Source of the DNA: a bacterium | Lineage (GTDB): Bacteria > Krumholzibacteriota > Krumholzibacteriia > LZORAL124-64-63 | Reading direction: 5' to 3' | Assembly (NCBI GenBank): GCA_020440705.1 | Contig: JAGRNP010000001.1 | Coordinates: 51,787 to 115,786, forward strand | DNA length: 64,000 bases | Part shown: piece after piece, positions 5,181 through 64,000 of the stretch | Position numbering within the stretch: the stretch's first letter is position 1 | Layout: each line of letters opens with the position of its first letter | Made by a program: the position numbers and the translations under genes | Notes under the pieces: model-generated | What the model was told of the DNA's origin: nothing | The model's database searches: none | The model's input: only the letters and a program-made list of their open reading frames with translations

Positions 5181-5236
5181 GGTTTCCTCGTGGTTGCGTC
5201 CCGGGCCCGCGGGCCCGGAACCCCGGTCCTGCGTGC

Positions 5237-49100: not shown

Positions 49101-49624
49101 ACGCCCGGGATGGCCCCCGGCCGCGGGAAGGTGGGCGTCGCCGCGGCCGTATCGGGGGCCGCGCTCGCGCTCGTGTCGGCGAGCGATCCGAGGAGCTCCA
49201 CCGAGGCCGGTGCATCGAGCCACCGGACGTCCACCCGCAGCGAATCGATCCGCACGTCCTCCTGTCTGAGGGCCTGCAGGTCGCACCAGAGCTCGAGCCG
49301 GGCGAGGTCGAGCAGGGTGTCGGCGGCCGCGCCCCCCGTCCAGACGACGTCCGTCAGGCGCAGATGCCCCAGCTCGGGCCAGGCGATCTCCCCCACCGCG
49401 ACCTCGCCGGGCAGTCGGGGCGCCGCCATCTGCAGCGCCGCGCCGGCCAGTCGCGAGCGCACCCCGCCGCTCTGCAGGACGGCCCCGACGAGCACCGCCA
49501 CGGCCACGATCGTCCACATGATCGCGACCAGGCCGTAATGCCCCGCCCGCCGGGCGATCCGCACCGGCCGCGAGCCCAGCACGCGCCCCGCGGCGCCGCC
49601 CCACTGCCGCATCCGGCTCACCAT
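46142..49624 (-). CDS. tamB: Translocation and assembly module subunit TamB (AsmA-like/DUF490)
   Basis: Start at MVSRMRQWGG...YGLVAIMWTIVAVAVLVGAVL (N-terminal TM anchor). It is a long beta-rich protein ending ...LILKYNHSLEKSGTYFLTMEYALTRIFKLVSTYGQGEEDSGLELRWSKRY, typical of the TamB C-terminal domain. It overlaps the upstream tamA stop. Confidence 0.8.
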   Translation of the reverse strand: MVSRMRQWGGAAGRVLGSRPVRIARRAGHYGLVAIMWTIVAVAVLVGAVLQSGGVRSRLAGAALQMAAPRLPGEVAVGEIAWPELGHLRLTDVVWTGGAAADTLLDLARLELWCDLQALRQEDVRIDSLRVDVRWLDAPASVELLGSLADTSASAAPDTAAATPTFPRPGAIPGVPSLALGDGRFALGRARLTPTEQVRNVVLRTEVEAGAGHEGRLRVRHLGGTFRSALLDSVTGEAWEIVLGHLGVGLSLSDAGGDEGLVAARLDSLNVQFDHVGAVGAPSPESGAGGLRTRRPLQLHNTGRLERTAAGLAGHLVSDFVLPGPADVAVLLPAGFPAEEFGRLHGRLRVDADVARPLIAVDVDLDLGATDWLEAGRLVASSRADVEQVMAGDRRSAVVQLDTLALAWQGASIAAAGRFVADTLDFDLVAGLEGTRLAEILAPRAAARVDSGTVSLRVGLAAAGTLFDPTVSLQGEGRFRTDEASLPALRLAARGTRDGGRLELHLPEGLAWGETRLDSLDVGLDVARSAGDSLRADFAVGVWSGALRAQTAGSAHVDSLGLAPVRTLSLDSLVVADGDHRIRLREPVRVVHGPQPGDLDVSTLALTGEPGLVELTARARSDTLALTALVDLDLPEALLQRLAPAEFWSADGGRDVTVDASLAVSGTRRSPELAGDAQVRLVPHRDEPNLGADLTFSLAAGDSAGVVADMAIVSADTAGLAARLVVPGRLDPQTGRWLMDPDRPTRLDVPEQQLGLSRLNRLLPDDVSLSGLFTVAATAVVGVANGGDGAGADSLATEQAPRLTGTVDGRLATPKLEIRLPYRSRLELRTDIALAGPLADPRVSGTIEVPSAFFRIPELPKALHPTEGQPALWALAAADSGAAAADTVAVFVRPEAKGPVLEAKGPAVLPDLDLKVTIPGNFRVHGYGLDVELAGDLQVDRGHDEDGRPQPRIVGDVRAVEGTLQFMNRVFRVERGDIGFHGAVPADPVLDMLLEADVSGTLVRIAVTGTAADPQVTLSSEPEYEEQDIVAVLLFGRPMNELDTDQRGGVRQEGDAGQQLRQNMAALAMVFGTAGLQNSVSETFGVDMVEVGSGSEGDSTLMVGKFIAPNLILKYNHSLEKSGTYFLTMEYALTRIFKLVSTYGQGEEDSGLELRWSKRY

Positions 49625-51591: not shown

Positions 51592-52752
51592 ATGAGCGAC
51601 TCGCCGATCTATCTCGACTACAACGCCACCACGCCGCCGGATCCCCGCGTGGCCGACGCCATGGCGCCCTTCCTCAGGGAGCCCTTCGGCAACCCCAGCA
51701 GCGGTCACGCCTGGGGCCGGCGCGCCCGCGCGGCCGTCGAAGGCGCGCGCGCCAGGGTCGCGGCCCTGCTGCAGGCCGACCCGGCGGGAGTCGTCTTCAC
51801 CGGTGGCGGCACCGAAGCGGACAACCACGCGCTGATCGGCGCGGCCCGGTTGCGCGCACCCCGGGGCGGCCACCTGGTCACCACGGCCGTCGAGCATCCC
51901 GCCATCACGGCCGCCTGCCGCCACCTGGCCGACTTCGGCGTCGAGACGACATACGTCGGCGTGGACGACCAGGGTCGCGTCGACCCGGCCGCGGTCGCCG
52001 CCGCATGCCGCCCCGACACCTTCCTGGTGTCGGTGATGCTGGCCAACAACGAGGTGGGCACCCTGCAGCCCGTGGCCGAGATCGCGGCCCTCGCCCGCGC
52101 CCGCGGGATCCTCTCCCACACCGACTGCGCCCAGGCCGTCGGCAAGGTCCCCGTCGGGCTCGACGATCTCGGCGTCGACATGATCTCTCTCGCGGGCCAC
52201 AAGCTGTACGGGCCGAAAGGGGTCGGGGCGCTCGTGCTGCGTTCCGGGGTCGCGGTGGCGAACCTCATGTTCGGCGCCGGCCACGAGCAGGGCCGTCGCC
52301 CCGGCACCGAGAACGTGCTGGCGATCGTGGGGCTGGGGGTCGCCTGCGAGCTCGCCGCCGACGACGTGGCATCGGAAGGACACCGCCTGGCCAACCTGCG
52401 CGATCGCCTGGCGACCATCATCACCGCGGGGCAGCCCGACGCCGTGGTCCATGCCGCCCGCGCGCCCCGTCTGCCGAACACGCTCAGCGTCGGCTTTCCC
52501 GCCCGCATCGCCGGCGAGATCATGGCGCGGCTGCCCGACGTGGCGGTGTCGGCCGGGGCGGCGTGCCACGGGGACGCGATCCATGTCTCCCACGTGCTCC
52601 AGGCCATGGGCGTGCCGCGCGACGTGGCGGTGGGGACGCTGCGCCTCTCCCTCGGCCGCATGACGACGGCCGCGGAAATCGAGGCCGCCGGGGCGCGGAT
52701 CGTCGCCGCCGCGGCGGCCACTCCCCGGGTCGGGACGGGGGATTCCGTCTAG
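51592..52752 (+). CDS. Cysteine desulfurase (IscS/NifS class V aminotransferase)
   Basis: AAGGAAG RBS. MSDSPIYLDYNATTPPDPRVADAMAPFLREPFGNPSSGHAWGRRA...SLAGHKLYGPKGVGAL...AGAACH... (PLP Lys in SLAGHK, catalytic Cys in AGAACH). Confidence 0.9.
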   Translation: MSDSPIYLDYNATTPPDPRVADAMAPFLREPFGNPSSGHAWGRRARAAVEGARARVAALLQADPAGVVFTGGGTEADNHALIGAARLRAPRGGHLVTTAVEHPAITAACRHLADFGVETTYVGVDDQGRVDPAAVAAACRPDTFLVSVMLANNEVGTLQPVAEIAALARARGILSHTDCAQAVGKVPVGLDDLGVDMISLAGHKLYGPKGVGALVLRSGVAVANLMFGAGHEQGRRPGTENVLAIVGLGVACELAADDVASEGHRLANLRDRLATIITAGQPDAVVHAARAPRLPNTLSVGFPARIAGEIMARLPDVAVSAGAACHGDAIHVSHVLQAMGVPRDVAVGTLRLSLGRMTTAAEIEAAGARIVAAAAATPRVGTGDSV

Positions 52753-53204
52753 GAGAGATCCTCGAGCGGAGCCAGCACCTGCAGCTGCTTCTGCATGGTC
52801 GGGCAGGGGTTCTCTTCGGAGAGCAGCTCGGCGAGCGTGGTCCCGGCGAACGCCTCCTGCACATGGGCCATGGCCTGATCGAGGCGGCGGTGCAGCGGAC
52901 ACAGGGCCGAGCTGTGGGCTTCGAGATCGAGGGGACACGATTCGATGCGCTGGATGGGGCTGACCGCGTTCATGATGTCGAGCATGCAGATCTCGGCCGG
53001 ATCCCGGGCCAGCACGAAGCCGCCGTTCAGGCCGCGGGTCGAGTAGACGAGCCGGCCCCGCACCAGCGACTGCAGCACCTTCGAGAGGTAGCTCTGCGGC
53101 ACCTTCATCATCGCGGCGATGGACTTGGTGGTCATCGGCGAGCCGTCGCCGGCGGCCAGGGCGAGGACCGCGCGCATGGCGTATTCGATGGTCAGAGAGA
53201 ACAC
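52749..53204 (-). CDS. Rrf2-family transcriptional regulator (IscR-like, with a Cys cluster)
   Basis: 151 aa, MFSLTIEYAMRAVLALAAGDGSPMTTKSIAAMMKVPQSYLSKVLQSLVRGRLVYSTRGLNGGFVLARDPAEI... with C-x-C-x-C/H residues further on. Confidence 0.8.
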   Translation of the reverse strand: MFSLTIEYAMRAVLALAAGDGSPMTTKSIAAMMKVPQSYLSKVLQSLVRGRLVYSTRGLNGGFVLARDPAEICMLDIMNAVSPIQRIESCPLDLEAHSSALCPLHRRLDQAMAHVQEAFAGTTLAELLSEENPCPTMQKQLQVLAPLEDLS

Positions 53205-53279
53205 GTCCTCATCCTCGGCTGGAGGGGCGAAGCCGGAATTAGATATACGTATCCAAATTAGCGGGGTTTCCGGCGGCTG

Positions 53280-53951
53280 TCAACGGCCGAAACTGATGCC
53301 GGCGCGGACGATCAGGTAGTCCCAGTTGTAGCTGCGCTGGATGCCGTCGGGATCGAATTTGGACGTGTCGAAGCGGTTGTAGGTGTACTCCCCCACCAGT
53401 TCGACGTTGCGCATCTTGAGGCCGATGCCGGCGCTGTAGGCGGGCGCATTCACCGACGACTGGAAATACGAGATGTCGTCCTCGTCCCGCAGCCGGTTGT
53501 TGGCCAGGGCGACGCCGCCGGTCAGGAAGAGCCGCATGGGCGAGCCGCCGCCGCCGGCAAAGGCGTGGAAGTCGACGCCGTAGCGGTACATCGAGGTGCG
53601 CCGGTAGTAGGGGATACCACCGTTGACCCCGGTGTCGGTGCCGAACCGCGTGTACTGGAAAACGGGTGAGACGGCGAAGAATTCGCCCAGGTACTGGCGC
53701 CAGCGGGCCCCGAGCTGGTAGCCGGTGCCGGACCCGAACCCGACCAGGGAGTCGAAGTAGGGTTCGTCCTGGTCACCCATGGGTTCCGCCAGGCCCCCTT
53801 CCAGAACGATCTCATGAGTCGACGGCGCCGCGTGGTAGCTCGGACCCCGGGTCGCCAGAACGACGCGGGCGTCGGCCTCGACGGCCAGGAGGGTGCTCGC
53901 GAGCAGGGCCAGCGCGACTGCGGTTGCGGTTCCGTTCGTCAGGTATCTCAT
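53280..53951 (-). CDS. Outer-membrane beta-barrel protein (OmpA-like TM barrel / PF13505-like)
   Basis: An internal ATG with an AAGGAG RBS gives the signal peptide MRYLTNGTATAVALALLASTLLAVEA, then alternating-hydrophobic beta-strand patterning rich in Tyr/Gly/Phe. Confidence 0.55.
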   Translation of the reverse strand: MRYLTNGTATAVALALLASTLLAVEADARVVLATRGPSYHAAPSTHEIVLEGGLAEPMGDQDEPYFDSLVGFGSGTGYQLGARWRQYLGEFFAVSPVFQYTRFGTDTGVNGGIPYYRRTSMYRYGVDFHAFAGGGGSPMRLFLTGGVALANNRLRDEDDISYFQSSVNAPAYSAGIGLKMRNVELVGEYTYNRFDTSKFDPDGIQRSYNWDYLIVRAGISFGR

Positions 53952-54192
53952 GATCTCGCTCCTTCGGGCGTCCGGGTCCGGTGCGAAGGGGACATGGCGG
54001 GGACCCTGGGTTGCCCGAGCGATAAGCAGGTTCGGTGCCGACCGCGCACGGTCGGGCCCCGACAGAAGCAAATCATTTCCGGAAAGCGACTTGCGGAGTG
54101 CCAGGCGCCCCGGATCCCCCACCCGTGGGCGCGTGCGGTCGCTGCCGTGTGCACCAGCGAGGACAGTCCATCCCGCGAGGGGACAGTCGGCC

Positions 54193-54579
54193 TCAGACGT
54201 ACTCGGCCACGCGTTCGAGCTGGTTCTCCACCGCCGCGAGCAGCACCTCGGCGTCGAAAGGCTTCGTGATGTACTTCATCACGCCCCCCTCGCGCGCCTT
54301 GTGGTAGTCGTCCTCGGCCGTGCGCGCCGTCAGGTAGATCACCGGAATGTCGCTGGTCTCGGTGATGTTCCGCAGGCGTTCGACCACCACGTGGCCGTTG
54401 CCCGCCGGCATGCCGATGTCGAGGATGATGAGGTCCGGGTGCTCCTCGATGGCCTTCTTGGTGGCCCCCAGGCCATCCATGGCCGTCGACACCTTGTAGC
54501 CCTCGGCCCGCAGCCGCAGACTCAGGCTGTGCACGATATCGGGTTCGTCGTCCACGACGAGAATGTGTCCCTTAGACAT
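54193..54579 (-). CDS. Single-domain response regulator (CheY-like receiver)
   Basis: AAAGGAG RBS. MSKGHILVVDDEPDIVHSLSLRLRAEGYKVSTAMDG...LIILDIGMPAGNG...KPF.... Confidence 0.85.
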   Translation of the reverse strand: MSKGHILVVDDEPDIVHSLSLRLRAEGYKVSTAMDGLGATKKAIEEHPDLIILDIGMPAGNGHVVVERLRNITETSDIPVIYLTARTAEDDYHKAREGGVMKYITKPFDAEVLLAAVENQLERVAEYV

Positions 54580-56128
54580 GGACGGCTCCTTTCCATTCGA
54601 CGGGTTGCAACTCGATCAGTTCGGGATGGTCCAGGACGCTGCGGTCGCCCGGCCGCGTCACATCGATGATGGCCAGGCGGGGCGTGGCCTCGGGATAGGA
54701 CTTGCCCAGGGCGGCCTCGAGTCGGGCGGCCAGGGACGCGGCGCCGGCGGCGTCGGTCTTCAGGACGAACGCGTTCACCGGTCGTTCGCCCAGATGCACG
54801 ACCCCCACGCGGTCGTCGCTGCTGCGCACGAGCGCGACCAGGTCGGATTCGAGGGCGGCCGGGTCCCAGGGCGCCCGAGGGTCCGGTTCCAGCAGCACCA
54901 GGGTCCACGGCACGATCATGCCGGTCGGGCTGTGGGTCGCGTCGCCCACGAAGGCCGCCAGGTGGGCCGGATGGGAGTAGACGGGCAGGGAGAAGCGGAA
55001 CCGGCAGCCCGGCGCGTCGTCCTCGAGCAGTTCGAGGCTCCCCCCGTGCAGTTCGACGATCTTGCGGGAGATGGGCAGGCCGAGCCCTGTCCCCTTGGCG
55101 CCCGGACCATCGCGACGGTTGAGCTGCGCGAACTTCTCGAACGCCCGGGCCCGGTCCTCGGGCGCGATGCCCGGACCGTCATCCGCCACCGTGACCTCGA
55201 CCATGTCCACGGCAGCGCGGGCGCTGACGGCGATCTTCCCCCCTTCGGGGGTGAACTTGTGCGCGTTGCCCACCAGGTTCACGAGCACCTGGGTGACCAT
55301 GTCGGGCGCCGCGAGCACCGGCGGCACCGGCGCGCCGTCACCCGTCGCGACCGCGATCTCCTGCCCGGCGCCGCGGCAGCGGCCGCTGAAGTCCTCCACG
55401 CACGAACGGATCAGCGCCGCGATGTCGACCCGCTCCCGGGACAGGCGCATGGCGCCCGACTCGATGCTGTCCAGGTCGAGCAGGTCGTTGACGAGTCCGG
55501 CCAGGCGGTCGCAGTTCCGCAGGGCCGACGCCAGGCACTTGCGCTGCTCGTCGCTCACCTCGCCCACGACACCGTCGTGCACCAGCGAGCAGAACTCGCG
55601 GATCACCGTCAGCGGGGTGCGGAATTCGTGGGAGGCGGCCGAGAGGTAGTCCGACTTGAGGTCGCTGATCTCCTGCAGCCGCGCGTTGGCCGCGTTCAGT
55701 TCGGCGACGAGCTCCGCCTGGGCGAGCTGGGCGCGCTTCAGGTTGAGGAAGGCCGCCACCTTGGCCCGGATCACGTGCGGATCGACGGGCTTGAAGAGAT
55801 AGTCGATGGCCCCCACGTCGTAGCCCGACGAGATGTGCCGCCGCTCCTTGTTGATCGCCGTCACGAAGATCACCGGCAGGTCCCGGGTCCGCGGATGCCG
55901 GCGCATCAGCTCGGCCACCTCGAAGCCGTCCATGCCCGGCATCTGCACGTCGAGCAGCACGAGGGCGAAGTCGTGGTCGAGCATCAGCGCGAGGGCCTCC
56001 TCGCCCGAGCCGGCCGCGAGGATGCTCATGTCGTCCCGCTCGAGGACCTGGCGCAGCGAGGCGATGTTGCTCGGCCGGTCGTCGACGATGAGGATCTTCA
56101 GGCTGGCGGCGTCCGGCATCGGATTCAC
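54572..56128 (-). CDS. Hybrid receiver-histidine kinase (REC, HisKA, HATPase_c, and a C-terminal domain of unknown function)
   Basis: GTG start after GAGGAGG. ...LKILIVDDRPSNIASL...LVLLDVQMPGMDGFEV...SAASHEFRTPL...GNAHKFTPEGG...DDGPGI...GTGLGL.... Its stop overlaps the downstream REC start, and its start overlaps the upstream HK stop. Confidence 0.85.
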   Translation of the reverse strand: MNPMPDAASLKILIVDDRPSNIASLRQVLERDDMSILAAGSGEEALALMLDHDFALVLLDVQMPGMDGFEVAELMRRHPRTRDLPVIFVTAINKERRHISSGYDVGAIDYLFKPVDPHVIRAKVAAFLNLKRAQLAQAELVAELNAANARLQEISDLKSDYLSAASHEFRTPLTVIREFCSLVHDGVVGEVSDEQRKCLASALRNCDRLAGLVNDLLDLDSIESGAMRLSRERVDIAALIRSCVEDFSGRCRGAGQEIAVATGDGAPVPPVLAAPDMVTQVLVNLVGNAHKFTPEGGKIAVSARAAVDMVEVTVADDGPGIAPEDRARAFEKFAQLNRRDGPGAKGTGLGLPISRKIVELHGGSLELLEDDAPGCRFRFSLPVYSHPAHLAAFVGDATHSPTGMIVPWTLVLLEPDPRAPWDPAALESDLVALVRSSDDRVGVVHLGERPVNAFVLKTDAAGAASLAARLEAALGKSYPEATPRLAIIDVTRPGDRSVLDHPELIELQPVEWKGAVHV

Positions 56129-59100
56129 GTCGTCACCTCCTCGGCTGCGGCCAGGCCGCGGCAGGCGGCGAGCACCTTGCCGATCGTGGCCGGCTTCTCG
56201 ACGAGGGCGTCGGCCGAGGCGATCTCGCCCGCCCGCTCGGACGGCACCATCGCGACCAGGCGCAGCAGGGGCGCGCCGCTGCAGGCACGCAGCTTCTGCA
56301 GCAGGTTCTCGCCGCGCGGCGAATCCGGCGCCCCGCCGGAGCACCAGGGATTGACCAGCACCACGGTGGGCGCCCGCAGGCTCGCGACGATGCCGAGCAG
56401 GTCCGACACCCGGCGCACGACTTCGGGACCGTGCCCCACCGAGACCAGTTCATCGCCCAGCCGGTAGATGGTCCGCATCTCGTCGTCGGCCAGGATGAGG
56501 TTCCAGCCGGCCAGGACGGACGGGTCCTGCACCGGCGACGCCGCCTGCACCTCGGGCTCCGGGGTGACCCAGTCGGCCACGTCGGTGCGGGCCGGCGGCG
56601 ACGACGCGACCTCCTCGCCCCCGACGCGCATGCGCAAAGGCAGATAGAGCGTGAACTTGCTGCCCTTGCCCTCGACGCTCGTCAGCTCGAGGCGCCCCTG
56701 CAGCAGCTCGGTCAGGCGGCGCGAGATCGACAGGCCGAGGCCCGACCCCCCGTAGCGTCGCCCGATCGTTCCGTCGCCCTGGTTGAAGGCCTCGAACACG
56801 CGGCGGCAGACCTCCTCGTTCATGCCGATGCCGGTGTCGGCCACCGAGAACGCGACGCACGGGTTCTGCATGCCGCCGCCCAGGCTGGCCACTTCGTCCT
56901 GGGAGGGCGTGCGCACGCGCAGGGCCACCGAGCCCTTGTCCGTGAACTTGCAGGCGTTGCTCAGCAGGTTCTTCAGGATCTGCTTGACCCGCAGCCCGTC
57001 GGTGAAGATCGCGTCGGGCACACCCGGCCCCCGGTAGGAACGGTATTCGATGCCCTTGCGGTCGGTGACCGGGTGGAAGAGCTGGTTGAGGTCGGACAGC
57101 AGGCTGTCGACCGCCACCTCGGTGGGCGAGAGTTCGAGTTTGCCGGCCTCGACCTTCGACAGGTCGAGGATGTCGTCGATGATGGTCATCAGTTCCTCGC
57201 CCGCCTGGTGGATCGTGCCGGCGGCCTCGACCTCGGAGCGGTCGAGCCGACCGGCCTTGTTCTCCCCCAGCACCTGCGCCATGAGCAGCATGCTGTTCAG
57301 CGGCGTCCGCAGTTCGTGGGACATGTTGGCCAGGAACTCGCTCTTGTAGCGGTCGGAGCGGGCCAGACGCTCGTTCTTGTCCTGCAGCTCCTTCTGCTGC
57401 CGCGAGAGCGTGCCCGCCTGCCGACGCGTCTCCTCGAGCAGCCGGTGCACCCGCTCGCGCGACCGCGACGAATCCAACGCGACGGCGACCGACTCGGCCG
57501 AAAGGCGCAGGAACTCGAGATCGTCGTCGCTCACCGCATCGAAGGTCGCCAGTTCGAGGATGCCCTTGATCTGGCCCGCGAGGTGGAACGGCGCCACGAT
57601 GAGGTGACGGGGCGCCGATTCGCCCATGGCGCTGCGGATCAGGATGTGCTCCGACGGCACGTCGCTCAGCACCTGGATGCGCCGCCGCATGGCCGCGCGC
57701 CCCACCACGCCCTGGCCCTCGCGCAGGCGCCGCACCGGCCAGTGGTCGTCCGATTCGCCGTAGTGGGCCACGAGCACCAGGCTCTGGCCCGGACGCGCCA
57801 GGTAGAAGGCGCCGGCCTGGGCGTTGTAGTAGTCGCCGATGTGTTCGAGGATCGCCGCGGCGAGGGTCTCGGTGTCCGGTTCGCCCCGCATGCGTTCGTT
57901 CAGTTCGGCCTGCTGTTCCTGGAGGCGGAACTGCCGGTCGCGGGTGCGCTTGGCCTCGTCGAGATGGTCGATCATCTTGGCGAAACTCGCAGCCAGACCG
58001 GCCACCTCGTCATCGCCGACGACGTCCAGGTCCGGAACCTCGTGACCGTCCGCCACGCGGTTCATCATGTGCCCCAGGGCCGTGATGGGCTGCAGCATGC
58101 GCTGGGCGATGATCTGGCCCACGATGGCGGCGGCGGCACCGGTCGCGATGATGATCAGCAGCATCGCGAGCTTGATGCGGGCCAGTCCGGCAAGGGCCTC
58201 GGACGCCGGCAGTTCGGTGATGAGGCCGAAGCGGCGGCCCAGGGCCTCGACGGTGACGCCGTAGCCGAAGACCTGGCGGTCGGTCGCGCCGAGATAGCTC
58301 GTCAGGTCGCCCGCCTTGCGGGGCGGATCGGTGGCGGCCCCCATGCGGCCTTCGAAAGCGGCCTTCTGGCTGTCCAGCCAGGCCGTGGTGACGTCGTTCA
58401 GCAGCCGGTCACGCAGGGGTTCGAGGTCGCTGTCATCGTGGCTGCTCAGCAGGAGGCGCAGGTTGTCGTCGACCAGGTAGATCCGCACCGTCGCCCCTTC
58501 GGGCAGGGCGCGGGCCATCTGGGTGCCGAGCTCGCGCCCGTCGATCTGGAAGGCGAGGAAGCCCTCCGGGTCCGGCTCGGGCCCGTACACGGGCACGACG
58601 AGGAAGGCCGATTCGAGGCCCGCGCTCGGCTCGTAGGGGCCGAAGTCGGACAACACGATGCCGCCGGTGACGGCCGCCTCGCGCACCGCCGACGCGAGGA
58701 TCGAGCGCGTGTACGTGCCGGTCAGGACGTTGCTGCCGAGATCGTCCTCGCGGGCGCAGCTGAAGAGCACGAGCCCCTCGGCGTCGAGCAGCAGGATGTC
58801 GTACCACGGCGAGGAATTGCGGAAGCGGACGAGTTCGTGACCCTCCTGCTGGGCGAGCGCCTCCCACGAGGCCCCGCCGATCCAGCTGCGGGCGTTCTGG
58901 CCGCTGGCCTGCAGATCGGCTTCCAGAAGTTCCAGGAAGGCGAGGTTCGAGCGCAAACGGCTCTGGTGGTCGAGCTCGCGGCGCGCCCGGTCGAAGAAGG
59001 CGTGCACGGTCTCCTTGCCGGCCGTGGCCGATCCCATCAGGGCGTCGCGGATGGCCTTGTGCTGGGATCGGCGCGCGCTCGTGTAGCCGATGGATCCGGC

Positions 59101-59217
59101 GACCACGAGGGGGATCACCGCCACGCCCATCAGCCACACCAGCAGGGTGTGGCGCAGGCTGCGCCGCGAGGGTCGGCCCACCTGGATCGGAGACGGGTTC
59201 TTGGGCAGCACGGACAT
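56125..59217 (-). CDS. Sensor histidine kinase with a periplasmic sensor region, a TM helix, HAMP, GAF, HisKA and HATPase_c, and a degenerate C-terminal receiver-like domain
   Basis: Start at MSVLPKNPSPIQVGRPSRRSLRHTLLVWLMGVAVIPLVVAGSIG. ...FLANMSHELRTPLNSM...NACKFTDKGSV...ADTGIGM...GGSGLGLSI... Confidence 0.85.
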   Translation of the reverse strand: MSVLPKNPSPIQVGRPSRRSLRHTLLVWLMGVAVIPLVVAGSIGYTSARRSQHKAIRDALMGSATAGKETVHAFFDRARRELDHQSRLRSNLAFLELLEADLQASGQNARSWIGGASWEALAQQEGHELVRFRNSSPWYDILLLDAEGLVLFSCAREDDLGSNVLTGTYTRSILASAVREAAVTGGIVLSDFGPYEPSAGLESAFLVVPVYGPEPDPEGFLAFQIDGRELGTQMARALPEGATVRIYLVDDNLRLLLSSHDDSDLEPLRDRLLNDVTTAWLDSQKAAFEGRMGAATDPPRKAGDLTSYLGATDRQVFGYGVTVEALGRRFGLITELPASEALAGLARIKLAMLLIIIATGAAAAIVGQIIAQRMLQPITALGHMMNRVADGHEVPDLDVVGDDEVAGLAASFAKMIDHLDEAKRTRDRQFRLQEQQAELNERMRGEPDTETLAAAILEHIGDYYNAQAGAFYLARPGQSLVLVAHYGESDDHWPVRRLREGQGVVGRAAMRRRIQVLSDVPSEHILIRSAMGESAPRHLIVAPFHLAGQIKGILELATFDAVSDDDLEFLRLSAESVAVALDSSRSRERVHRLLEETRRQAGTLSRQQKELQDKNERLARSDRYKSEFLANMSHELRTPLNSMLLMAQVLGENKAGRLDRSEVEAAGTIHQAGEELMTIIDDILDLSKVEAGKLELSPTEVAVDSLLSDLNQLFHPVTDRKGIEYRSYRGPGVPDAIFTDGLRVKQILKNLLSNACKFTDKGSVALRVRTPSQDEVASLGGGMQNPCVAFSVADTGIGMNEEVCRRVFEAFNQGDGTIGRRYGGSGLGLSISRRLTELLQGRLELTSVEGKGSKFTLYLPLRMRVGGEEVASSPPARTDVADWVTPEPEVQAASPVQDPSVLAGWNLILADDEMRTIYRLGDELVSVGHGPEVVRRVSDLLGIVASLRAPTVVLVNPWCSGGAPDSPRGENLLQKLRACSGAPLLRLVAMVPSERAGEIASADALVEKPATIGKVLAACRGLAAAEEVTT

Positions 59218-59340
59218 GATCCCTCGTCGGTCGGTAGCCCCGCACGACCCGGACCGCCCGGCCCGGGTTTCTTTCCTGTCCAGATTCGGCCGAACTGAGG
59301 GAAACTTTACGCAGGAACGCCACCGCGGGGCAGCGGGGGG

Positions 59341-59381
59341 AATCATGGGAAACGCCCGGCCCCTTCCTGCGGGGCCGGGCG
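59341..59381 (-). terminator. Terminator-like hairpin downstream of the sigma-54 activator gene
   Basis: Stem CGCCCGGCCCC / GGGGCCGGGCG with loop ttcctgc, followed on the minus strand by TTTCCCATGATT. Confidence 0.45.
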
Positions 59382-59409
59382 TCTGCACCTGTCGGCGGGC
59401 GTCGGCCCG

Positions 59410-61944
59410 CTAGTCTTGCCGCACCTTGGCGGCGATGCCCAGCCTTTCCATCTGGCGGTACAGGGTGCTGCGGCTGACACCCAGGGCACGCGCCGCCCGG
59501 GCGCGGTTGCCGTCGGCTTCGGCCAGGGCCAGCAGGATCCGCGAACGCCCGGTCTCCCGGCCGCCGAGCCGCCGCGGCGCGTCGGCCGGCCTGAAGGCGC
59601 CCGCGCCGTCGCGCCCCACGAGGTGCACGGGGAAGCCGTCGGCATCGCCCAGTTCGACGTCCACCGCGCCGCACGCCGCATGCTGGACGTGCGCCTGGCG
59701 GGCCGCCATGGCGATCTCCCGCACGTTGCCCGGCCAGGCATAGGACTGGGCCCGCTCGAGGCTGGCGGCGCTGAAGTAGCGCGACAGCTCGACCGGAACG
59801 CCGGCCGCCTCGGCCAGGAAGTGCTTCAGGAGCGGCAGGATGTCCTCGCGCCGCTCCGTGATGGGAGGCAGCCTCAGCTCGAGGATCTTCAATCGGTAGT
59901 AGAGATCGGCCCGGAACCGGCCCTCGGCCACCCGCTGCTTCAGATCGGCGTTGGTCGCGGCCACGAGCCGGATGTCGGCGTGGCGTTCGGCCGGGTCGCC
60001 GATGGCCTGGTACGAGCCGTCCTGCAGCAGGCGCAGCAGCCGCGGCTGCAGTTCCAGGGGCAGGTCGCCGATCTCGTCCAGGAAGAGGGTGCCGCCGTGG
60101 GCGCGGGCCGCCAGGCCGATGCCGTCGCTCTCGGCCCCGCTGAACGAGCCCTTCGTGTGGCCGAAGAACTCCCGTTCGAAGATCGACTCGGGAATGGCCG
60201 TCACGTTGACGCACACCAGCTCGCCGTGGCGCCGGGTGCTCTTCTCGTGCAGGCGCCGCGCGAAGAGCTCCTTGCCGGTCCCGGTCTCGCCCGTCACCAG
60301 CACCGGTTCGCCGCTGTCGGCGAAGGCGTCGGTCAGCTGGATCAGGTCGCGCATGCGCGACGAGACGTGGACGATGCGCACCGGCGCGCGCCGCAGCCCG
60401 GTCGGGCGCGGTCCCGCCGCGGCGCCGGCCGCGAGACGTCCGGAGAGCTCGACGTCCTGGCGCACGCCCGAAATCCGGTTCAGCAGCTGGCGGGCCGCCA
60501 GGATCCAGTGGTCGACCTCCATCTTCAGGAAGAGGTCGAGGGCCGACATGGCATCCTGCCAGGCCTCGTCGAGGATCAGGCCGCGCTCGTCGTCGAGACC
60601 GCCCTCGACCCGGGCCACGGCGGTCTCGGCCGCCTGCAGGTGCGCGATCGCCAGCTCGTGCCGGCCGTTGACCTCGGCCAGCAGCCCCACGGCGTCGCGC
60701 GCGTAGTGCTGGGCCGAGCCCAGGTCGGCCAGACCGAGCAGGGTCTCGGACATGACCCGCTTGATCACGCCTTCCTCGAAGCGATCGCCCTGGCGCCGGG
60801 CCAGGCCGAGGGCGCGCGTCAGCACGGGCACGGCTTCGGACTGCCGGCCGAGCCGCGTCAGGCACTCGCCCTGCCGGCGCAGCACCTCCATGACGATGTC
60901 GCCGTCGGGCGCGATGCTGTTGCCCACGGCCAGGGCGCGGCTGTAGTAGCGCCGGGCCGCTTCGATCTGGCCCTGGTCGCGATGCACGTCGCCGAGGAAT
61001 TCGAGGGCCAGCGCCTCTTCGCGCGAGAGCAGCAGGCCGTTGGCCCGCTCGTAGGCCTGCATCAGTTCGGCGCGGGCGCCTTCGAAGTCGCGCCGCAGGC
61101 GCAGGGTGTTGCCCAGGGCGATGCCCGCCCGGCACAGGCTGGTGCGCGCGTCGACCTGCTCGAGCAGCCGGATGGCGGCTTGCAGCTCGGACTGCGAGCG
61201 GCCGAAATCGCCCTGCTTGTAGTGGGCGATTCCGACATTCAACCTGTTGCCGCCCATATTCTTGAGCATTCCGAGTTGAGAATGCAGTTGATGGGCCCGC
61301 TCGAACCAGCGCACGGCTTCCTGATACTCGGCGCCGCGGAAGGCGATCACGCCCATGAGATTGGCGGTGCGCGCCCCGTCGAGGCGGTTGTCCAGCACGC
61401 GGTACACCGAATAGGCGGCCTCGACGTCCTCGCGCGCCGCGTCCGGATCTCCAAGGGCCGACCAGGCCTGGCCCCGCAGGTACAGGAAGTCGGCGATGAC
61501 CGGCGGCAGGTGCTGCCGGTGGGCGTCGATGAACGCGGTCGCCACGTCGATGACGGGCATGTAGTCGCCCCGCTTGCAGGCGAAGGCCAGCCGGACCACT
61601 TCCAGATCGGGCAGGCCGGCGGGCACCATGTCCCAGCGACCGGCCGAAGCGTGCAGGACCTCGAAGTCCTGGAAGCGCTCGAGCTGGAAGAGATTGCGGG
61701 CGCAAAGGACGACACCGTCCTTCACGGTGGGGGAACCGGGTGCGGGCACGAGGGCGATCGGGCCGGGTTCCCGGGTCTCGATGGCGTCGAGGCAGGCTCG
61801 GGCCAGCTTGAGCGAGTTCTCGTAGTCCTCGTCCAGAAAGGCCTTCCAGGCTTGCTCCCAGGCCTTCGGATCGAGGGGAATCTCGCCCAAGGAGCCGCCG
61901 GTGGCGTGGCCGGCGACCCGCGTGTCCTGGGCGCTATTTCTCAT
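59410..61944 (-). CDS. Sigma-54-dependent transcriptional activator (bEBP) with an N-terminal TPR-repeat sensory region and a C-terminal Fis-type HTH
   Basis: Start at MRNSAQDT with a GGAGGAG RBS. TPR-like repeats occupy the first ~500 aa. The AAA+ core reads ...VLVTGETGTGKELFARRLH...REFFGHTKGSFSGA..., and the HTH reads ...ALGVSRSTLYRQMERLGI. Confidence 0.85.
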   Translation of the reverse strand: MRNSAQDTRVAGHATGGSLGEIPLDPKAWEQAWKAFLDEDYENSLKLARACLDAIETREPGPIALVPAPGSPTVKDGVVLCARNLFQLERFQDFEVLHASAGRWDMVPAGLPDLEVVRLAFACKRGDYMPVIDVATAFIDAHRQHLPPVIADFLYLRGQAWSALGDPDAAREDVEAAYSVYRVLDNRLDGARTANLMGVIAFRGAEYQEAVRWFERAHQLHSQLGMLKNMGGNRLNVGIAHYKQGDFGRSQSELQAAIRLLEQVDARTSLCRAGIALGNTLRLRRDFEGARAELMQAYERANGLLLSREEALALEFLGDVHRDQGQIEAARRYYSRALAVGNSIAPDGDIVMEVLRRQGECLTRLGRQSEAVPVLTRALGLARRQGDRFEEGVIKRVMSETLLGLADLGSAQHYARDAVGLLAEVNGRHELAIAHLQAAETAVARVEGGLDDERGLILDEAWQDAMSALDLFLKMEVDHWILAARQLLNRISGVRQDVELSGRLAAGAAAGPRPTGLRRAPVRIVHVSSRMRDLIQLTDAFADSGEPVLVTGETGTGKELFARRLHEKSTRRHGELVCVNVTAIPESIFEREFFGHTKGSFSGAESDGIGLAARAHGGTLFLDEIGDLPLELQPRLLRLLQDGSYQAIGDPAERHADIRLVAATNADLKQRVAEGRFRADLYYRLKILELRLPPITERREDILPLLKHFLAEAAGVPVELSRYFSAASLERAQSYAWPGNVREIAMAARQAHVQHAACGAVDVELGDADGFPVHLVGRDGAGAFRPADAPRRLGGRETGRSRILLALAEADGNRARAARALGVSRSTLYRQMERLGIAAKVRQD

Positions 61945-62302
61945 ACCACTCCTCCAGACGATGCGAGGCGTCGGACATGATGTAGAACCTGAAGGTGATG
62001 CTGCTTCCGTCCTGGACCGGCACGATGAGCACGGGCCCCGCATGGAGGAGCTTGTCGAGGAACGAGGGGGCGAGCCAGGATCCGCCCGCGGCGTTCTCGT
62101 GGATGTCGTCGTCGGAATCGCCACCACCGGCGTCGTTGGTGTCGAGGGGATCGCCGGTCCGGCGCTCGCCCCGGTGGCTCGTGTCGAGCCCCCGTTCGTC
62201 GTCGGCCCGCGCGGTCGAGAACCCGCCCAGTCCCAGCAGGATCAGGACGGACATCAGCGCCAGGGCCGCCTTGGCGCTCAGGTGATCGAGCAACTTCTCC
62301 AT
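61934..62302 (-). CDS. Small secreted Asp/Gly-rich hypothetical protein, co-transcribed with the sigma-54 activator
   Basis: GGGAGGG RBS. MEKLLDHLSAKAALALMSVLILLGLGGFSTARA (signal peptide), then an acidic DDERGLDTSHRGERRTGDPLDTNDAGGGDSDDDIHENAAGGS... Its 3' end overlaps the activator start by 11 nt. Confidence 0.5.
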   Translation of the reverse strand: MEKLLDHLSAKAALALMSVLILLGLGGFSTARADDERGLDTSHRGERRTGDPLDTNDAGGGDSDDDIHENAAGGSWLAPSFLDKLLHAGPVLIVPVQDGSSITFRFYIMSDASHRLEEWYEK

Positions 62303-62420
62303 TGGTTCCCTCCCGGGAATTGCGGCTGCGAGGTGCCTCGAATGGTGCGGGGTTCGCATGAACCTACGGAATCGGGCGCCGGGAGGAAAGAGGGGCCGGC
62401 AGATGCGGGCGGGGACCGGG

Positions 62421-63683
62421 TCAGGCCGGTTGCCCCGCCCACTTCTCGATCAGGGGCCGCACCTTGTCCACGCGGAACGGCTTGGCCAGGAAGTCGTTGA
62501 TGCCGGCGTCGATGCAGTCGGCGAGCTGGGTCTCGTCCGGGGAGGACGTGAGCGCGATGATCGTCAGGGGCGCACCCCAATCCGGATCCGCGGTGATGCG
62601 GTCGACCTCGAGGCGCCGGATCTCGCGGGTGGCCGCGACGCCGTCGAGATTGGGCATGGCCAGGTCCATCAGCACGAGGTCCCACGGACGGCTCCGCGCC
62701 CGGGCGAAGGTGTCGACGACCTGGCGCCCGCAGGTGGCCGTCGCCACGTCGCAGCCCAGGCGGCCGAGCAGCTGCCGCCCCACGGCCAGGTTCACCTCCG
62801 CGTCGTCGACCAGCAGCACCCGGCAGGCCTCGCCGCCCGTTCCCGGCCCGACGACCGGTTCGATGTCCGGGTCGGCCTCGATGCCCGACACCTCGCGCAG
62901 GGTCCGCACGAGCAGCTCCCGCTCCAGGTGCACCCGCAGGCGGGCCATCAGCTCCTCCTGGATGCAGGGCTTGGTCAGGTAGTCGGTCGCGCCAATCTTG
63001 AACAGGGCCAGGGTCCGGGCGTCGTCGGCGTTGGACGACAGGAAGATGACCGGCAGTTCGGACAGGCGCTTGTTGCCCCGGATCTTCAGACAGAGCTCGT
63101 CGCCGCCCATGCGCGCCATGTGCAGATCGGTCAGCACCAGGTCGACGTCGTGGTTCTGCAGGTACTGCCAGGCCGTGTCCCCGTCGTCCGCTTCCTGCAC
63201 CTGGGCGCCCAGCCGCGACACGCCGGAGCGCACGAAGCGCCGGATCGTGCGGCTGTCGTCCACCACGAGCACGTTCAGGTCCTGCATCTCGGTGCGGCAG
63301 CCGAGCAGCGAGTTGACGTGGGCGAGCAGGTCGCCCCGCTGCCAGGGCTTCTGGATGAAGTCGGCCGCGCCGATGTAGTAGCCGCGGAGGCGGTCCTCGT
63401 CGTTGTCGTTGGAGGTGACGAAGACGGCGTGGAGGTTGTCGTTGCCCAGCGGGGCCACCTGGGCCAGGAATTCGCGCGACATGATCTCGGCGAGGAAGTC
63501 GAAGGCCTCCATGCCCTCGAGCACCATGCTGAGGGTGAGCAGCGAGATGCCCGGCTCGGTGAGCAGCACCTCGCGGGCCTCCTCCGGGTTCGCGGCCTCG
63601 AGCACCTCGTAGTCGCCCCATTCGAGCTCTTCCCGGATGAAACGCCGCACCATCGAACTGCCGTCGAGCACCAGAACGCGCAT
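62421..63683 (-). CDS. Protein of three tandem receiver (REC) domains, no output domain
   Basis: 420 aa. MRVLVLDGSSMVRRFI..., ...LNVLVVDDSRTIRRFV...LVLTDLHMARMGG... and ...RVLLVDDAEVNLAVGRQLL...LVLMDLAMPNLDG.... Confidence 0.8.
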   Translation of the reverse strand: MRVLVLDGSSMVRRFIREELEWGDYEVLEAANPEEAREVLLTEPGISLLTLSMVLEGMEAFDFLAEIMSREFLAQVAPLGNDNLHAVFVTSNDNDEDRLRGYYIGAADFIQKPWQRGDLLAHVNSLLGCRTEMQDLNVLVVDDSRTIRRFVRSGVSRLGAQVQEADDGDTAWQYLQNHDVDLVLTDLHMARMGGDELCLKIRGNKRLSELPVIFLSSNADDARTLALFKIGATDYLTKPCIQEELMARLRVHLERELLVRTLREVSGIEADPDIEPVVGPGTGGEACRVLLVDDAEVNLAVGRQLLGRLGCDVATATCGRQVVDTFARARSRPWDLVLMDLAMPNLDGVAATREIRRLEVDRITADPDWGAPLTIIALTSSPDETQLADCIDAGINDFLAKPFRVDKVRPLIEKWAGQPA

Positions 63684-63891
63684 CGGTTCCTCCCCCGCTC
63701 TGCGGGCCTCGGGTCCCCGTCATGACTAAGTATTTCCTTTATCGGCAAAAGCGGCGCCGACGTGAGCGAAAATGCGTCGCGCGCTGTCGCCGTCGGGCCA
63801 GTTGGCTTAATATGTGCGCCGAGCCCCGTCCGGCCTCACGGCGGGGCCTTGAACTTGTACCGACCGGACACGCGGCGACGGGAGTGGTGAG

Positions 63892-64000
63892 ATGGAGTAT
63901 CGGTTTCTGGGCAAGTCGGGCCTGAAGGTCAGCGCCCTCAGCTTCGGCGCCTGGGTCACGTTCCAGGACCAGCTGGACGTGGACAAGGCGCACGCCTGCA
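63892..64000 (+). CDS. Aldo/keto reductase (AKR), N-terminal fragment; continues beyond the window
   Basis: GGAG upstream. [36 protein letters not shown], a typical AKR / Kv-beta-like N-terminus. Confidence 0.7.

Follow-up and report, generated by a model that had tools for sequence, protein, structure and literature searches.

A block of six signalling genes on the minus strand of the DNA analysed here is probably one regulatory cassette with optional phosphorelay add-ons, rather than three independent signalling groups. The block occupies positions 54193-63683 of a 64-kb stretch (the window) of contig JAGRNP010000001.1 from the Krumholzibacteriota assembly GCA_020440705.1. As judged from related loci, the core of the cassette consists of a gene for a protein of 122 aa, predicted to be Sec-exported and largely disordered, and a gene for a cytoplasmic sigma-54 activator, an enhancer-binding protein (EBP) with TPR, AAA+ and helix-turn-helix (HTH) domains (TPR-EBP). 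In Krumholzibacteria, it also includes a downstream gene for a predicted outer-membrane beta-barrel. The genes for a histidine kinase (HK), a kinase with an N-terminal receiver (REC-HK) and a stand-alone receiver (REC), as well as the upstream REC genes, behave as variable accessories in the same comparison. An earlier note on this DNA had sorted the block into three groups; the comparative loci speak for a single cassette to which accessories are variably attached.

In the mechanism we propose, the small/EBP operon would be transcribed from its own sigma-70-like promoter, and the activator would bind an enhancer of TGTCC repeats (54148-54185). Once the TPR domain frees the AAA+ ring, the activator would remodel the sigma-54 holoenzyme at a -24/-12 promoter (54024-54040) and thereby turn on the barrel gene. 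Binding of the TPR-EBP to the TGTCC enhancer, with sigma-54-dependent activation of the neighbouring barrel gene as the result, is likely, given the conserved cis-elements and the adjacency of the genes. What controls the TPR domain can be proposed more tentatively.

Comparison of related loci

We compared about 25 related metagenomic loci, numbered below where they have to be told apart. Scans with the small-protein alignment gave three genomic loci, one of them from a Candidatus Krumholzibacteriota metagenome-assembled genome (MAG), and 12 metagenomic loci; more were obtained via homologues of the barrel and of the EBP. Loci with a barrel gene showed three layouts. In L018, L020, L025, L028 and L030, a single REC gene or nothing precedes the small gene, which is followed by the TPR-EBP gene and the barrel gene. 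L026/27 carry a REC-HK and a REC gene between the EBP and barrel genes, and the window, L011 and L012 have a GAF-containing HK gene, a REC-HK gene and a REC gene at this place. L028 is a bare cassette with zero receiver or kinase genes.

The pair of small gene and TPR-EBP gene was found in about 20 loci, and the small gene stands directly 5' of the TPR-EBP gene in every locus examined. This includes four distant loci (L032, L033, L034 and L035), whose EBPs are 30-51% identical to the EBP of the window and in which small-protein identity falls to about 20%. Each of them has an open reading frame (ORF) of 121-130 aa with a signal peptide and the motif (E/A)GDPxD(G/A) directly 5' of the EBP gene; at the junction, one locus has a gap of 25 nt, and the other three have overlaps of 4, 11 and 11 nt. 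The neighbourhoods of L032-L034, the contigs long enough for this comparison, are wholly different from that of the window. Since the pair is kept in these distant loci, we regard it as a conserved functional unit.

One of the distant loci also carries related cis-elements. In L033 (5329-5457, GC 53%), the region 5' of the small/EBP operon contains TGTCC three times as well as a GTGTCCCG...CGGGACAC palindrome, and a sigma-54-like element on the opposite strand (TGGACCAGGATATGCT) faces a divergent operon for three signal-peptide proteins (69 aa; 395 aa, with a weak DUF5128 match; and a lipoprotein of 224 aa). These sequence elements suggest that the DNA specificity is the same in L033 and that the output is directed at the envelope.

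In L032, a near-consensus sigma-54 promoter (TGGCATCGCGCTTGCA, about 5221-5236, minus strand) lies 5' of the small gene and points away from it, at the 3' end of a plus-strand lipoprotein gene; no gene was called in that direction.

Barrel gene and its sigma-54 promoter and enhancer

The proposed sigma-54 target lies outside the block (Table 1). Its product gave no Pfam match at E ≤ 0.01 and none in NCBIfam. The family comprises 74 clusters (44-67% identity for full-length members) with names, where given, in Krumholzibacteria/-ia, and a precomputed PF13505 match exists for four of these 74 homologues. The AlphaFold2 (AF2) model is an all-beta barrel (pLDDT 87.5, 10 predicted strands), and a Foldseek search of the PDB returned the OmpA transmembrane domain, OmpX, Ail, OmpW and NspA (probability 1.0, E 7e-8 to 1e-4). 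From the model, we confidently predict a small OmpA/OmpX/OmpW-like outer-membrane beta-barrel. The C-terminus reads ...ISFGR, the aromatic residue not being terminal.

According to the earlier note, sigma-54 target promoters were not obvious in the window. However, a -24/-12 element (cGGCACcgaacCTGCTt) stands directly downstream of the REC gene, 150 nt outside the block, and faces the barrel gene. The pattern GGCAY-N6-TGCW has two matches in the 64-kb window, namely cGGCACcgaacCTGCTt and a site inside the REC-HK gene (55534-55548, plus strand). Because this is no more than expected from chance alone, the significance of the promoter comes from its conservation across loci: the element occurs in all nine loci with a readable region, at -67 to -92 from the barrel ATG, in the versions tGGCCCcaaatCTGCAt, gGGCACtgtccGTGCAa, aGGCATatcccCTGCAa, cGGCATcctccCTGCAa and similar ones, while shuffled 320-nt regions give a match in 0.7-2% of cases. 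A loose sigma-54 scan of the whole window returned about 290 matches in this 70%-GC DNA and was uninformative.

A candidate enhancer, or upstream activator site (UAS), precedes this promoter. We searched for it initially as TGTCC-N5-9-GSCACA (zero matches in the window, where the copy reads TGCACA) and then relaxed the pattern. The strict form TGTCC-N12-20-TGTCC-N5-9-xSMACA is present in seven of the nine loci, roughly 140 nt beyond the promoter and at -229 to -241 from the barrel ATG (chance ≤0.0006 per region). L012 has a perfect palindrome, TGTCC-N6-GGACA, and L026 a degenerate version. Several loci show an AT-rich stretch between enhancer and promoter, which may be a bending site. Promoter and enhancer remain beside the barrel gene with zero, two or three genes inserted after the EBP gene, while other intergenic sequence diverges.

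Between promoter and ATG, the 5' untranslated region of the barrel gene contains a leader block in several relatives (GGATTGAGAGTCC ... GGCCCC(T)TTC ... ATTCAACCGGAGG; L011 9265-9325, with equivalents in L018, L020, L025 and L028). The block is much weaker in the window, where the region has no Rfam match, and may be a structured leader.

The TPR-type activator

The EBP begins with a TPR superhelix of about 500 aa, continues with an AAA+ sigma-54 interaction domain and ends with a Fis-type HTH; neither a REC nor a GAF domain is present. The TPR sensory half in place of REC or GAF had been described in the earlier note, and its worry that the TPR region could be low complexity is answered by phmmer searches against PDB sequences, in which residues ~120-430 matched consensus TPR, OGT, Pins/LGN and kinesin light chain (best E 3.4e-15). 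On these sequence matches, we take the TPR region to be genuine. It also has weak MalT-like TPR matches in Pfam, and the N-terminal 160 aa of the protein matched nothing in Pfam or NCBIfam.

Among the functional motifs are the L1 loop GSFSGA, the Walker A motif GETGTGK and the Walker B motif LFLDEI. The EBP family consists of 116 clusters, mostly of 800-860 aa with a few truncated, and labelled mostly Krumholzibacteriota. The loop follows the pattern G[AS][FY][ST]GA throughout the family with the aromatic residue retained, and LFLDEI is found in 105 of the 116 members; by this alignment, GSFSGA is a conservative variant of GAFTGA. That is, the protein has what is expected of a bacterial EBP (bEBP): an AAA+ domain with Walker A and B motifs, a GAFTGA-type loop, an HTH_8 domain, and a conserved enhancer and -24/-12 promoter nearby. 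It is the sole EBP in the 64-kb window, and the fetched loci contain no second one either. Compared with the NCBIfam equivalogs, it scored best with NorR (274 bits versus a cut-off of 476), and every match covered the AAA+/HTH half only.

Our literature search found no paper on TPR-type bEBPs, and a large comparative survey of sigma-54 mentions neither TPR nor outer-membrane-protein targets (PMC3162934). Judging from the sequences collected here, TPR-type bEBPs with coupled small exported proteins are a conserved family, seen so far in uncultured FCB-group bacteria only. Sigma-54 activators as such are known; this bEBP cassette stands out by its unusual sensor and by the unusual partner to which the activator gene is coupled.

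The small protein, predicted to be exported

The small gene and the EBP gene of the window overlap by 11 nt (ATGAGAAATAG), and a Shine-Dalgarno sequence (GGAGGAG) lies 4 nt 5' of the EBP ATG. The earlier note had pointed out this coupling of a small Asp/Gly-rich exported protein to the EBP, and the family proved to be conserved. While a word-indexed search found only three homologues besides the window sequence itself, a full HMMER profile search gave 48 representative clusters at 50% identity (69-130 aa, all but one at least 104 aa), 47 of which were aligned. G50, D51, P52 and D54 are invariant among the 47, within the consensus EGDP[LIV]D[TGS]N[DE]; the window protein reads EGDP(L)D(T)ND, followed by a Gly/Asp-rich disordered linker. 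Every one of the 47 members shows signal-peptide features, defined as N-terminal K/R, a hydrophobic stretch and a small-x-small site, with a GDPx[DG] motif 15-33 residues beyond.

An AF2 model built with the family alignment has two confident elements, a helix at residues 2-28 (the signal peptide) and a beta-hairpin at 91-108; residues 29-80, which include the motif, are disordered in it. Compared with PDB folds, the model gave no match (best E 1.9), and the sequence had no match in Pfam or NCBIfam. A second transmembrane helix was considered, as a C-terminal hydrophobic stretch exceeds the Kyte-Doolittle threshold in 19 of the 47 members, but the conserved Pro/Gly/polar turn and the modelled beta-hairpin make it unlikely.

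The family ends in E-x-x-x-A-[KRP] (the last ~10 alignment columns), which overlies the Shine-Dalgarno sequence and start codon of the EBP gene. Because of this coincidence, part of the C-terminal conservation probably reflects a signal for translational coupling and not protein function.

It is common for bEBPs that lack a receiver to be under the control of a partner protein; NifL-NifA, PspA-PspF and HrpV-HrpS are examples. We propose that the TPR domain would likewise hold the AAA+ module off until a partner binds. The strict coupled pairing, the disordered motif-bearing chain and the existence of L028, which lacks two-component genes, together make the small protein the prime candidate for this partner; a chain predicted to be disordered, with a linear motif and a hairpin, is of the type that TPR grooves bind. 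Our preferred reading, which we hold tentatively and at somewhat less than even chances, is that the small protein occupies the TPR groove, either as the unexported precursor or as a processed and re-imported fragment bearing EGDPxD.

Kinases and receivers

All receiver-like segments were aligned with CheY to check the phospho-acceptor positions. The triple-REC protein indeed has three REC stretches and no output domain, as the earlier note had stated, but the alignment sets the first of them apart. REC1 has Ser at the position of CheY-D57 and Gly at that of D13, and is therefore a pseudo-receiver that cannot be phosphorylated; REC2 and REC3 are canonical. Only REC3 has homologues 5' of the small gene (40-44% identity; L018 and L021-L025). 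The upstream REC gene is missing in L011, L012, L017 and L028, and most relatives have a single REC gene or none. By this comparison, the triple-REC gene is a lineage-specific expansion of an upstream single-REC gene, and its product may buffer, or compete for, phosphoryl groups. With a first domain that cannot be phosphorylated, and with one REC or none at this place in most relatives, the phosphate sink or relay hub of the earlier note is a conjecture.

In the HK, two transmembrane segments enclose an unassigned domain of about 300 aa that presumably lies in the periplasm; HAMP, GAF, HisKA and HATPase_c domains come next. Its C-terminal 161 aa had no Pfam match in a scan at E ≤ 5, and the CheY alignment revealed there a receiver-like domain, missed by Pfam, with Val at the T87 position and Asn at the D57 position, the latter making it a pseudo-receiver. 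In the same Pfam scan (E ≤ 5), the N-terminal ~370 aa of the HK (58108-59217) and the C-terminal ~134 aa of the REC-HK (54572-54976) gave sub-threshold matches only: DUF3782 (E 0.18) and SIP (E 0.048), the latter in the REC-HK segment, which shares just 37% identity with its L011 counterpart. In NCBIfam, neither the N-terminal nor the C-terminal segment of the HK matched anything. The L011 homologue backs the HK start at 59217. Among the loci compared, the HK gene is limited to the window, L011 and, in a shorter form, L012, and REC-HK orthologues occur in L011, L012 and L026/L027. The best NCBIfam match of the REC-HK was EpsF, at 250 bits versus a cut-off of 900, and the protein is therefore not an EpsF orthologue.

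Both the receiver of the REC-HK and the stand-alone REC carry the phospho-acceptor Asp, and both kinases have kinase cores. The layout had been taken for that of a multi-step phosphorelay, which also calls for a histidine phosphotransfer (HPt) domain and an Asp-bearing C-terminal receiver in the hybrid kinase. We detected no HPt in the six proteins, even with the unassigned segments scanned at E ≤ 5, a result that holds for the locus and leaves room for a remote HPt elsewhere in the genome. Since there is no HPt and the receiver of the HK lacks the Asp, this is not a His-Asp-His-Asp relay, and a two-tier kinase cascade fits better. In such a cascade, the GAF/HAMP HK would phosphorylate the REC of the REC-HK, which would then phosphorylate the stand-alone REC without an HPt.

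This cascade probably ends at the stand-alone REC, which is 80-82% identical to its orthologues in L011 (8709-9086) and L012 (7085-7453), versus 37-77% for the other proteins of the block. Such strong constraint on a single-domain protein of 128 aa suggests several interaction partners. Rap-Spo0F provides a precedent for a single-domain receiver that docks on a TPR scaffold. By analogy, phosphorylated single-domain receivers could provide a secondary input by docking on the TPR or AAA+ module, an idea we put forward as possible though doubtful.

Features of the block and flanking genes

Genes were called by analysis of codon-position GC content (GC3 frame). The window has about 70% GC and for this reason contains many long spurious ORFs. 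The analysis singled out six minus-strand genes (GC3 0.84-0.95, GC2 0.38-0.51), and together with the Pfam matches it bears out both the six signalling genes on one strand and the domain calls made before. None of the six proteins reached an equivalog cut-off in NCBIfam, and an Rfam scan of 52700-64000 at E ≤ 1 gave zero matches.

Table 1. Genes and cis-elements of the cassette and its accessories (window coordinates; roles of cis-elements are candidate assignments)
Feature	Position	Strand	Size	Domains or description
Triple-REC protein	62421-63683	minus	420 aa	Three Response_reg stretches, E 3.8e-63 (Pfam)
Candidate sigma-70-like promoter of small/EBP operon	62361-62390	minus		CTTTCC-N18-TAGGTT
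Small exported protein	61934-62302	minus	122 aa	No Pfam or NCBIfam match
TPR-EBP	59410-61944	minus	844 aa	TPR_12/TPR_2/TPR_1, Sigma54_activat 525-690 (E 2.9e-60), AAA_lid_14, HTH_8 801-834 (Pfam)
GC-rich hairpin	59354-59380	minus	10 bp	GCCCGGCCCC-GCAGGAA-GGGGCCGGGC, then GTTTCCC; directly after EBP stop codon
HK	56125-59217	minus	1030 aa	HAMP 370-420, GAF 448-582, HisKA 625-692, HATPase_c 740-862 (Pfam)
REC-HK	54572-56128	minus	518 aa	GTG start; REC 12-124, HisKA, HATPase_c (Pfam)
Stand-alone REC	54193-54579	minus	128 aa	One receiver domain (Pfam)
Candidate enhancer (UAS)	54148-54185	minus		TGTCC-N15-TGTCC-N7-TGCACA; TGT-N10-12-ACA form; ~110-145 nt 5' of the -24 element
Proposed sigma-54 -24/-12 promoter	54024-54040	minus		cGGCACcgaacCTGCTt; GG 54039-38, GC 54027-26; 73 nt 5' of barrel ATG, pattern at -88
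Barrel gene, proposed sigma-54 target	53280-53951	minus	223 aa	Signal peptide; predicted barrel (AF2/Foldseek); outside the block

The junctions were read from the sequence and agree with the overlaps of 4, 8 and 11 nt listed earlier. HK and REC-HK genes share GTGA (4 nt), with a Shine-Dalgarno sequence GAGGAGG 7 nt 5' of the GTG, and REC-HK and REC genes overlap by 8 nt. The hairpin that follows the EBP gene is a candidate terminator-like or attenuating element by its sequence; relatives without kinase genes have a hairpin and a T-run at the equivalent position 3' of the EBP gene. Given this hairpin and an intergenic gap of 192 nt, the EBP and HK genes are not tightly coupled.

The promoter block assigned to the small/EBP operon recurs with equal spacing as CTTTCG-N18-TAGGTT in L011 and as CTTTAC-N18-TAGCTT in L012, and its core TCCGTAGCTTCAG is found in L013, L016 and L017. 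A sigma-54 promoter 5' of the small gene was considered and rejected, as the GG/GC-like strings in the window and in L011 differ in anchor spacing (17 versus 20 nt). A weak -24/-12-like element had also been noted upstream of the AKR gene (gene start 63892). This string (TGGCTTAATATGTGCG, 63803-63818, plus strand) was not found in 12 related AKR upstream regions. Many of these regions have a GTGGTACATTG / GTAGATTGG (TAGATT) block about 45-55 nt before the ATG, with which TTAATAT of the window aligns, and the block looks like the extended -10 of a sigma-70-type promoter. The supposed -24/-12 element thus coincides with a conserved sigma-70-like block.

Beyond the barrel gene lie genes for an Rrf2-family regulator (52749-53204, minus strand) and a class-V aminotransferase/NifS-like protein (about 51607-52752, plus strand), and further on an Omp85/TamA-like gene ending at 49618 (minus strand) and a TamB-like gene (46142 to about 49620, minus strand). 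The order Rrf2, NifS-like, TamA and TamB is also found in L026, L028 and L030.

Alternative explanations

In the picture given by the earlier note, a multi-step phosphorelay, a TPR-EBP operon with distant sigma-54 targets and a triple-REC phosphate sink were juxtaposed independently. The domain calls behind it are correct, the hairpin and the 192-nt gap separate EBP and HK genes, and the triple-REC gene has an intergenic region of its own; that accessory genes come and go among relatives could mean functional independence, too. We nevertheless consider this picture improbable: an HPt and the Asp in the HK's own receiver are lacking, a conserved -24/-12 promoter with its enhancer adjoins the block, and the kinase and receiver genes occupy one and the same place, between the EBP gene and the target promoter, in at least three diverged lineages. 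The order of genes might also be misleading in another way, if the barrel stands beside the EBP by inherited order within a narrow lineage, some other activator serves the promoter, and the TGTCC repeats either are left over from terminators or represent unrelated sites. Every barrel-containing locus indeed lies in the AKR ... Rrf2 / NifS / TamAB neighbourhood, and a terminator hairpin and T-run directly adjoin the first TGTCC in L018, L020, L025 and L030. Such an artefact is hard to reconcile, however, with a promoter and TGTCC repeats that keep fixed distances from the barrel gene despite intergenic divergence and 0, 2 or 3 inserted genes. Moreover, TGTCC repeats and a palindrome flank the EBP of distant L033, beside a sigma-54-like element facing a secreted-protein operon, and the 64-kb window holds no other EBP. 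We rate it as very improbable, the least probable of the explanations weighed here.

Closer to our own proposal is the possibility that the route from EBP via sigma-54 to the barrel is real, and that the small protein is a non-regulatory envelope protein, for instance one that works together with the barrel or with the periplasmic domain of the kinase, with the TPR domain sensing an unrelated cytoplasmic ligand or only receivers. With signal-peptide features in all 47 aligned members, the small protein is expected outside the cytoplasm, a barrel or a POTRA-like partner could gain a strand from its C-terminal hairpin, and the EBP has weak matches to MalT-like TPRs; MalT-type sensors bind small molecules. 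On the other hand, the small gene stays with the EBP gene and not with the barrel gene in distant, barrel-less loci, it is not under the sigma-54 promoter of the barrel, and its coupling to the EBP gene (overlap and internal Shine-Dalgarno sequence) is kept down to about 20% protein identity. We therefore hold a non-regulatory small protein to be rather unlikely, although it is the strongest of the three alternatives.

Several points weigh against the cassette model and its preferred TPR partner. No barrel gene lies downstream in distant L032-L034, and all barrel-containing loci share a wider synteny (AKR ... Rrf2, NifS, TamA/TamB). Because of this synteny, part of the adjacency may be inherited gene order, and adjacency alone is weak evidence; the case rests on the cis-elements and the distant loci. 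The hairpin and the gap behind the EBP gene mean that the kinase genes may form an independent operon, and the contact between stand-alone REC and EBP is a proposal only. Neither the window nor the fetched loci yielded an ORF with an RpoN box. Export is predicted for the small protein but the TPR domain is cytoplasmic, which leaves capture before export, re-import of a fragment, or no regulatory role; an importer or a processing protease is not encoded nearby. Its EGDPxD motif is invariant, whereas known signalling peptides diversify. Finally, the relatives are all uncultured MAGs or metagenome contigs, and the case is one of comparative sequence analysis.

If the small protein does act on the TPR domain, the two might form a signal-receptor pair in a diderm, working as an RRNPP-like circuit or as a secretion monitor, with sigma-54 control of an outer-membrane barrel as the output. 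We regard this extension as unlikely, and state it for its consequences. In the RRNPP-like version, the exported chain would be cut, possibly at the Asp-Pro bond, to an EGDPxD peptide that re-enters the cytoplasm and binds the TPR groove. As a secretion monitor, the TPR domain would capture unexported precursor made alongside it by coupled translation, and the output would report Sec or envelope status. In both versions, receivers would dock on the TPR scaffold as Spo0F does on Rap proteins. To our knowledge, an architecture in which a sigma-54 AAA+ activator controls an outer-membrane barrel is undescribed for peptide- or secretion-sensing regulators.

The cassette model offers a testable regulon in an uncultured phylum, for which activator, enhancer, promoter and target gene are all proposed. 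It also illustrates modular evolution of inputs, as one regulatory core would take zero, one or several two-component modules. Should the small protein prove to be a TPR ligand or anti-activator, TPR-based sensing of peptides or secretion would extend beyond Firmicutes, into diderms and into the sigma-54 system. Such an extension would agree with the role proposed for sigma-54 in governing the exterior of the cell (PMC3162934).

Comparison with known systems

By their defining features at sequence level, the proteins described here fall outside the RRNPP, Prs and named bEBP equivalog groups, each of which they resemble in part. NifL-NifA and, more loosely, PspA-PspF and HrpV-HrpS likewise combine an activator without a phosphorylatable receiver with a partner gene that lies directly upstream and is translationally coupled. 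The adjacent proposed sigma-54 target is a further likeness, as is the candidate enhancer: the NifA-type form is TGT-N10-ACA, and here we find TGT-N10-12-ACA. In contrast to NifA, the sensor is a TPR superhelix of ~500 aa and not a GAF domain, and the partner is a disordered 122-aa protein with a signal peptide instead of a cytoplasmic PAS/kinase-like protein. The NCBIfam models for nifA (231 bits versus a cut-off of 529) and pspF (205 versus 444) set the EBP apart from both.

With RRNPP systems (Rap-Phr, NprR-NprX, PlcR-PapR), the cassette shares a gene for a cytoplasmic TPR protein beside the gene of a small protein, here predicted to be Sec-exported, and, as proposed here, regulation of adjacent genes (criteria in PMC10075063). 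The single-domain receivers nearby recall the binding of the receiver Spo0F by Rap proteins. Yet the host is an FCB-group diderm and not a member of the Firmicutes, and the motif is near the N-terminus of the mature chain and invariant rather than diversified. A phmmer search against the PDB gave no sequence similarity to Rap, NprR or PlcR, and the locus has no Opp-like importer. Sizes differ as well: the receptor has 844 aa including a sigma-54 AAA+ domain, versus 250-500 aa (PMC10075063), and the small protein has 122 aa (104-130 in all but one family member), versus at most 100 aa (10-100, PMC10075063).

The PrsK/PrsR/PrsT system (Haft et al. 2006, PMC1569441) likewise brings a sigma-54 activator together with a histidine kinase and a TPR protein. 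Its targets are single-gene operons of exported or envelope proteins with a -24/-12 element about 70 nt before the start codon and an upstream activator site (PMC1569441), an arrangement similar to that of the barrel gene. In the Prs system, however, the TPR protein is a separate lipoprotein and PrsR has a receiver, whereas here the TPR domain is fused to a receiver-less activator. The EBP scored 245 bits with TIGR02915 (PrsR; cut-off 503), and the barrel protein ends in ...SFGR without a PEP-CTERM tail.

The accessory kinases, in turn, differ from known two-tier cascades (Myxococcus RedCDEF and EpsF-type REC-HKs) in the extra pseudo-receiver of the HK and in the low EpsF score of the REC-HK. 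In their overall order they resemble them: the sensor HK comes first, a kinase that begins with a receiver second and a single-domain receiver last, there is no HPt, and the genes overlap.

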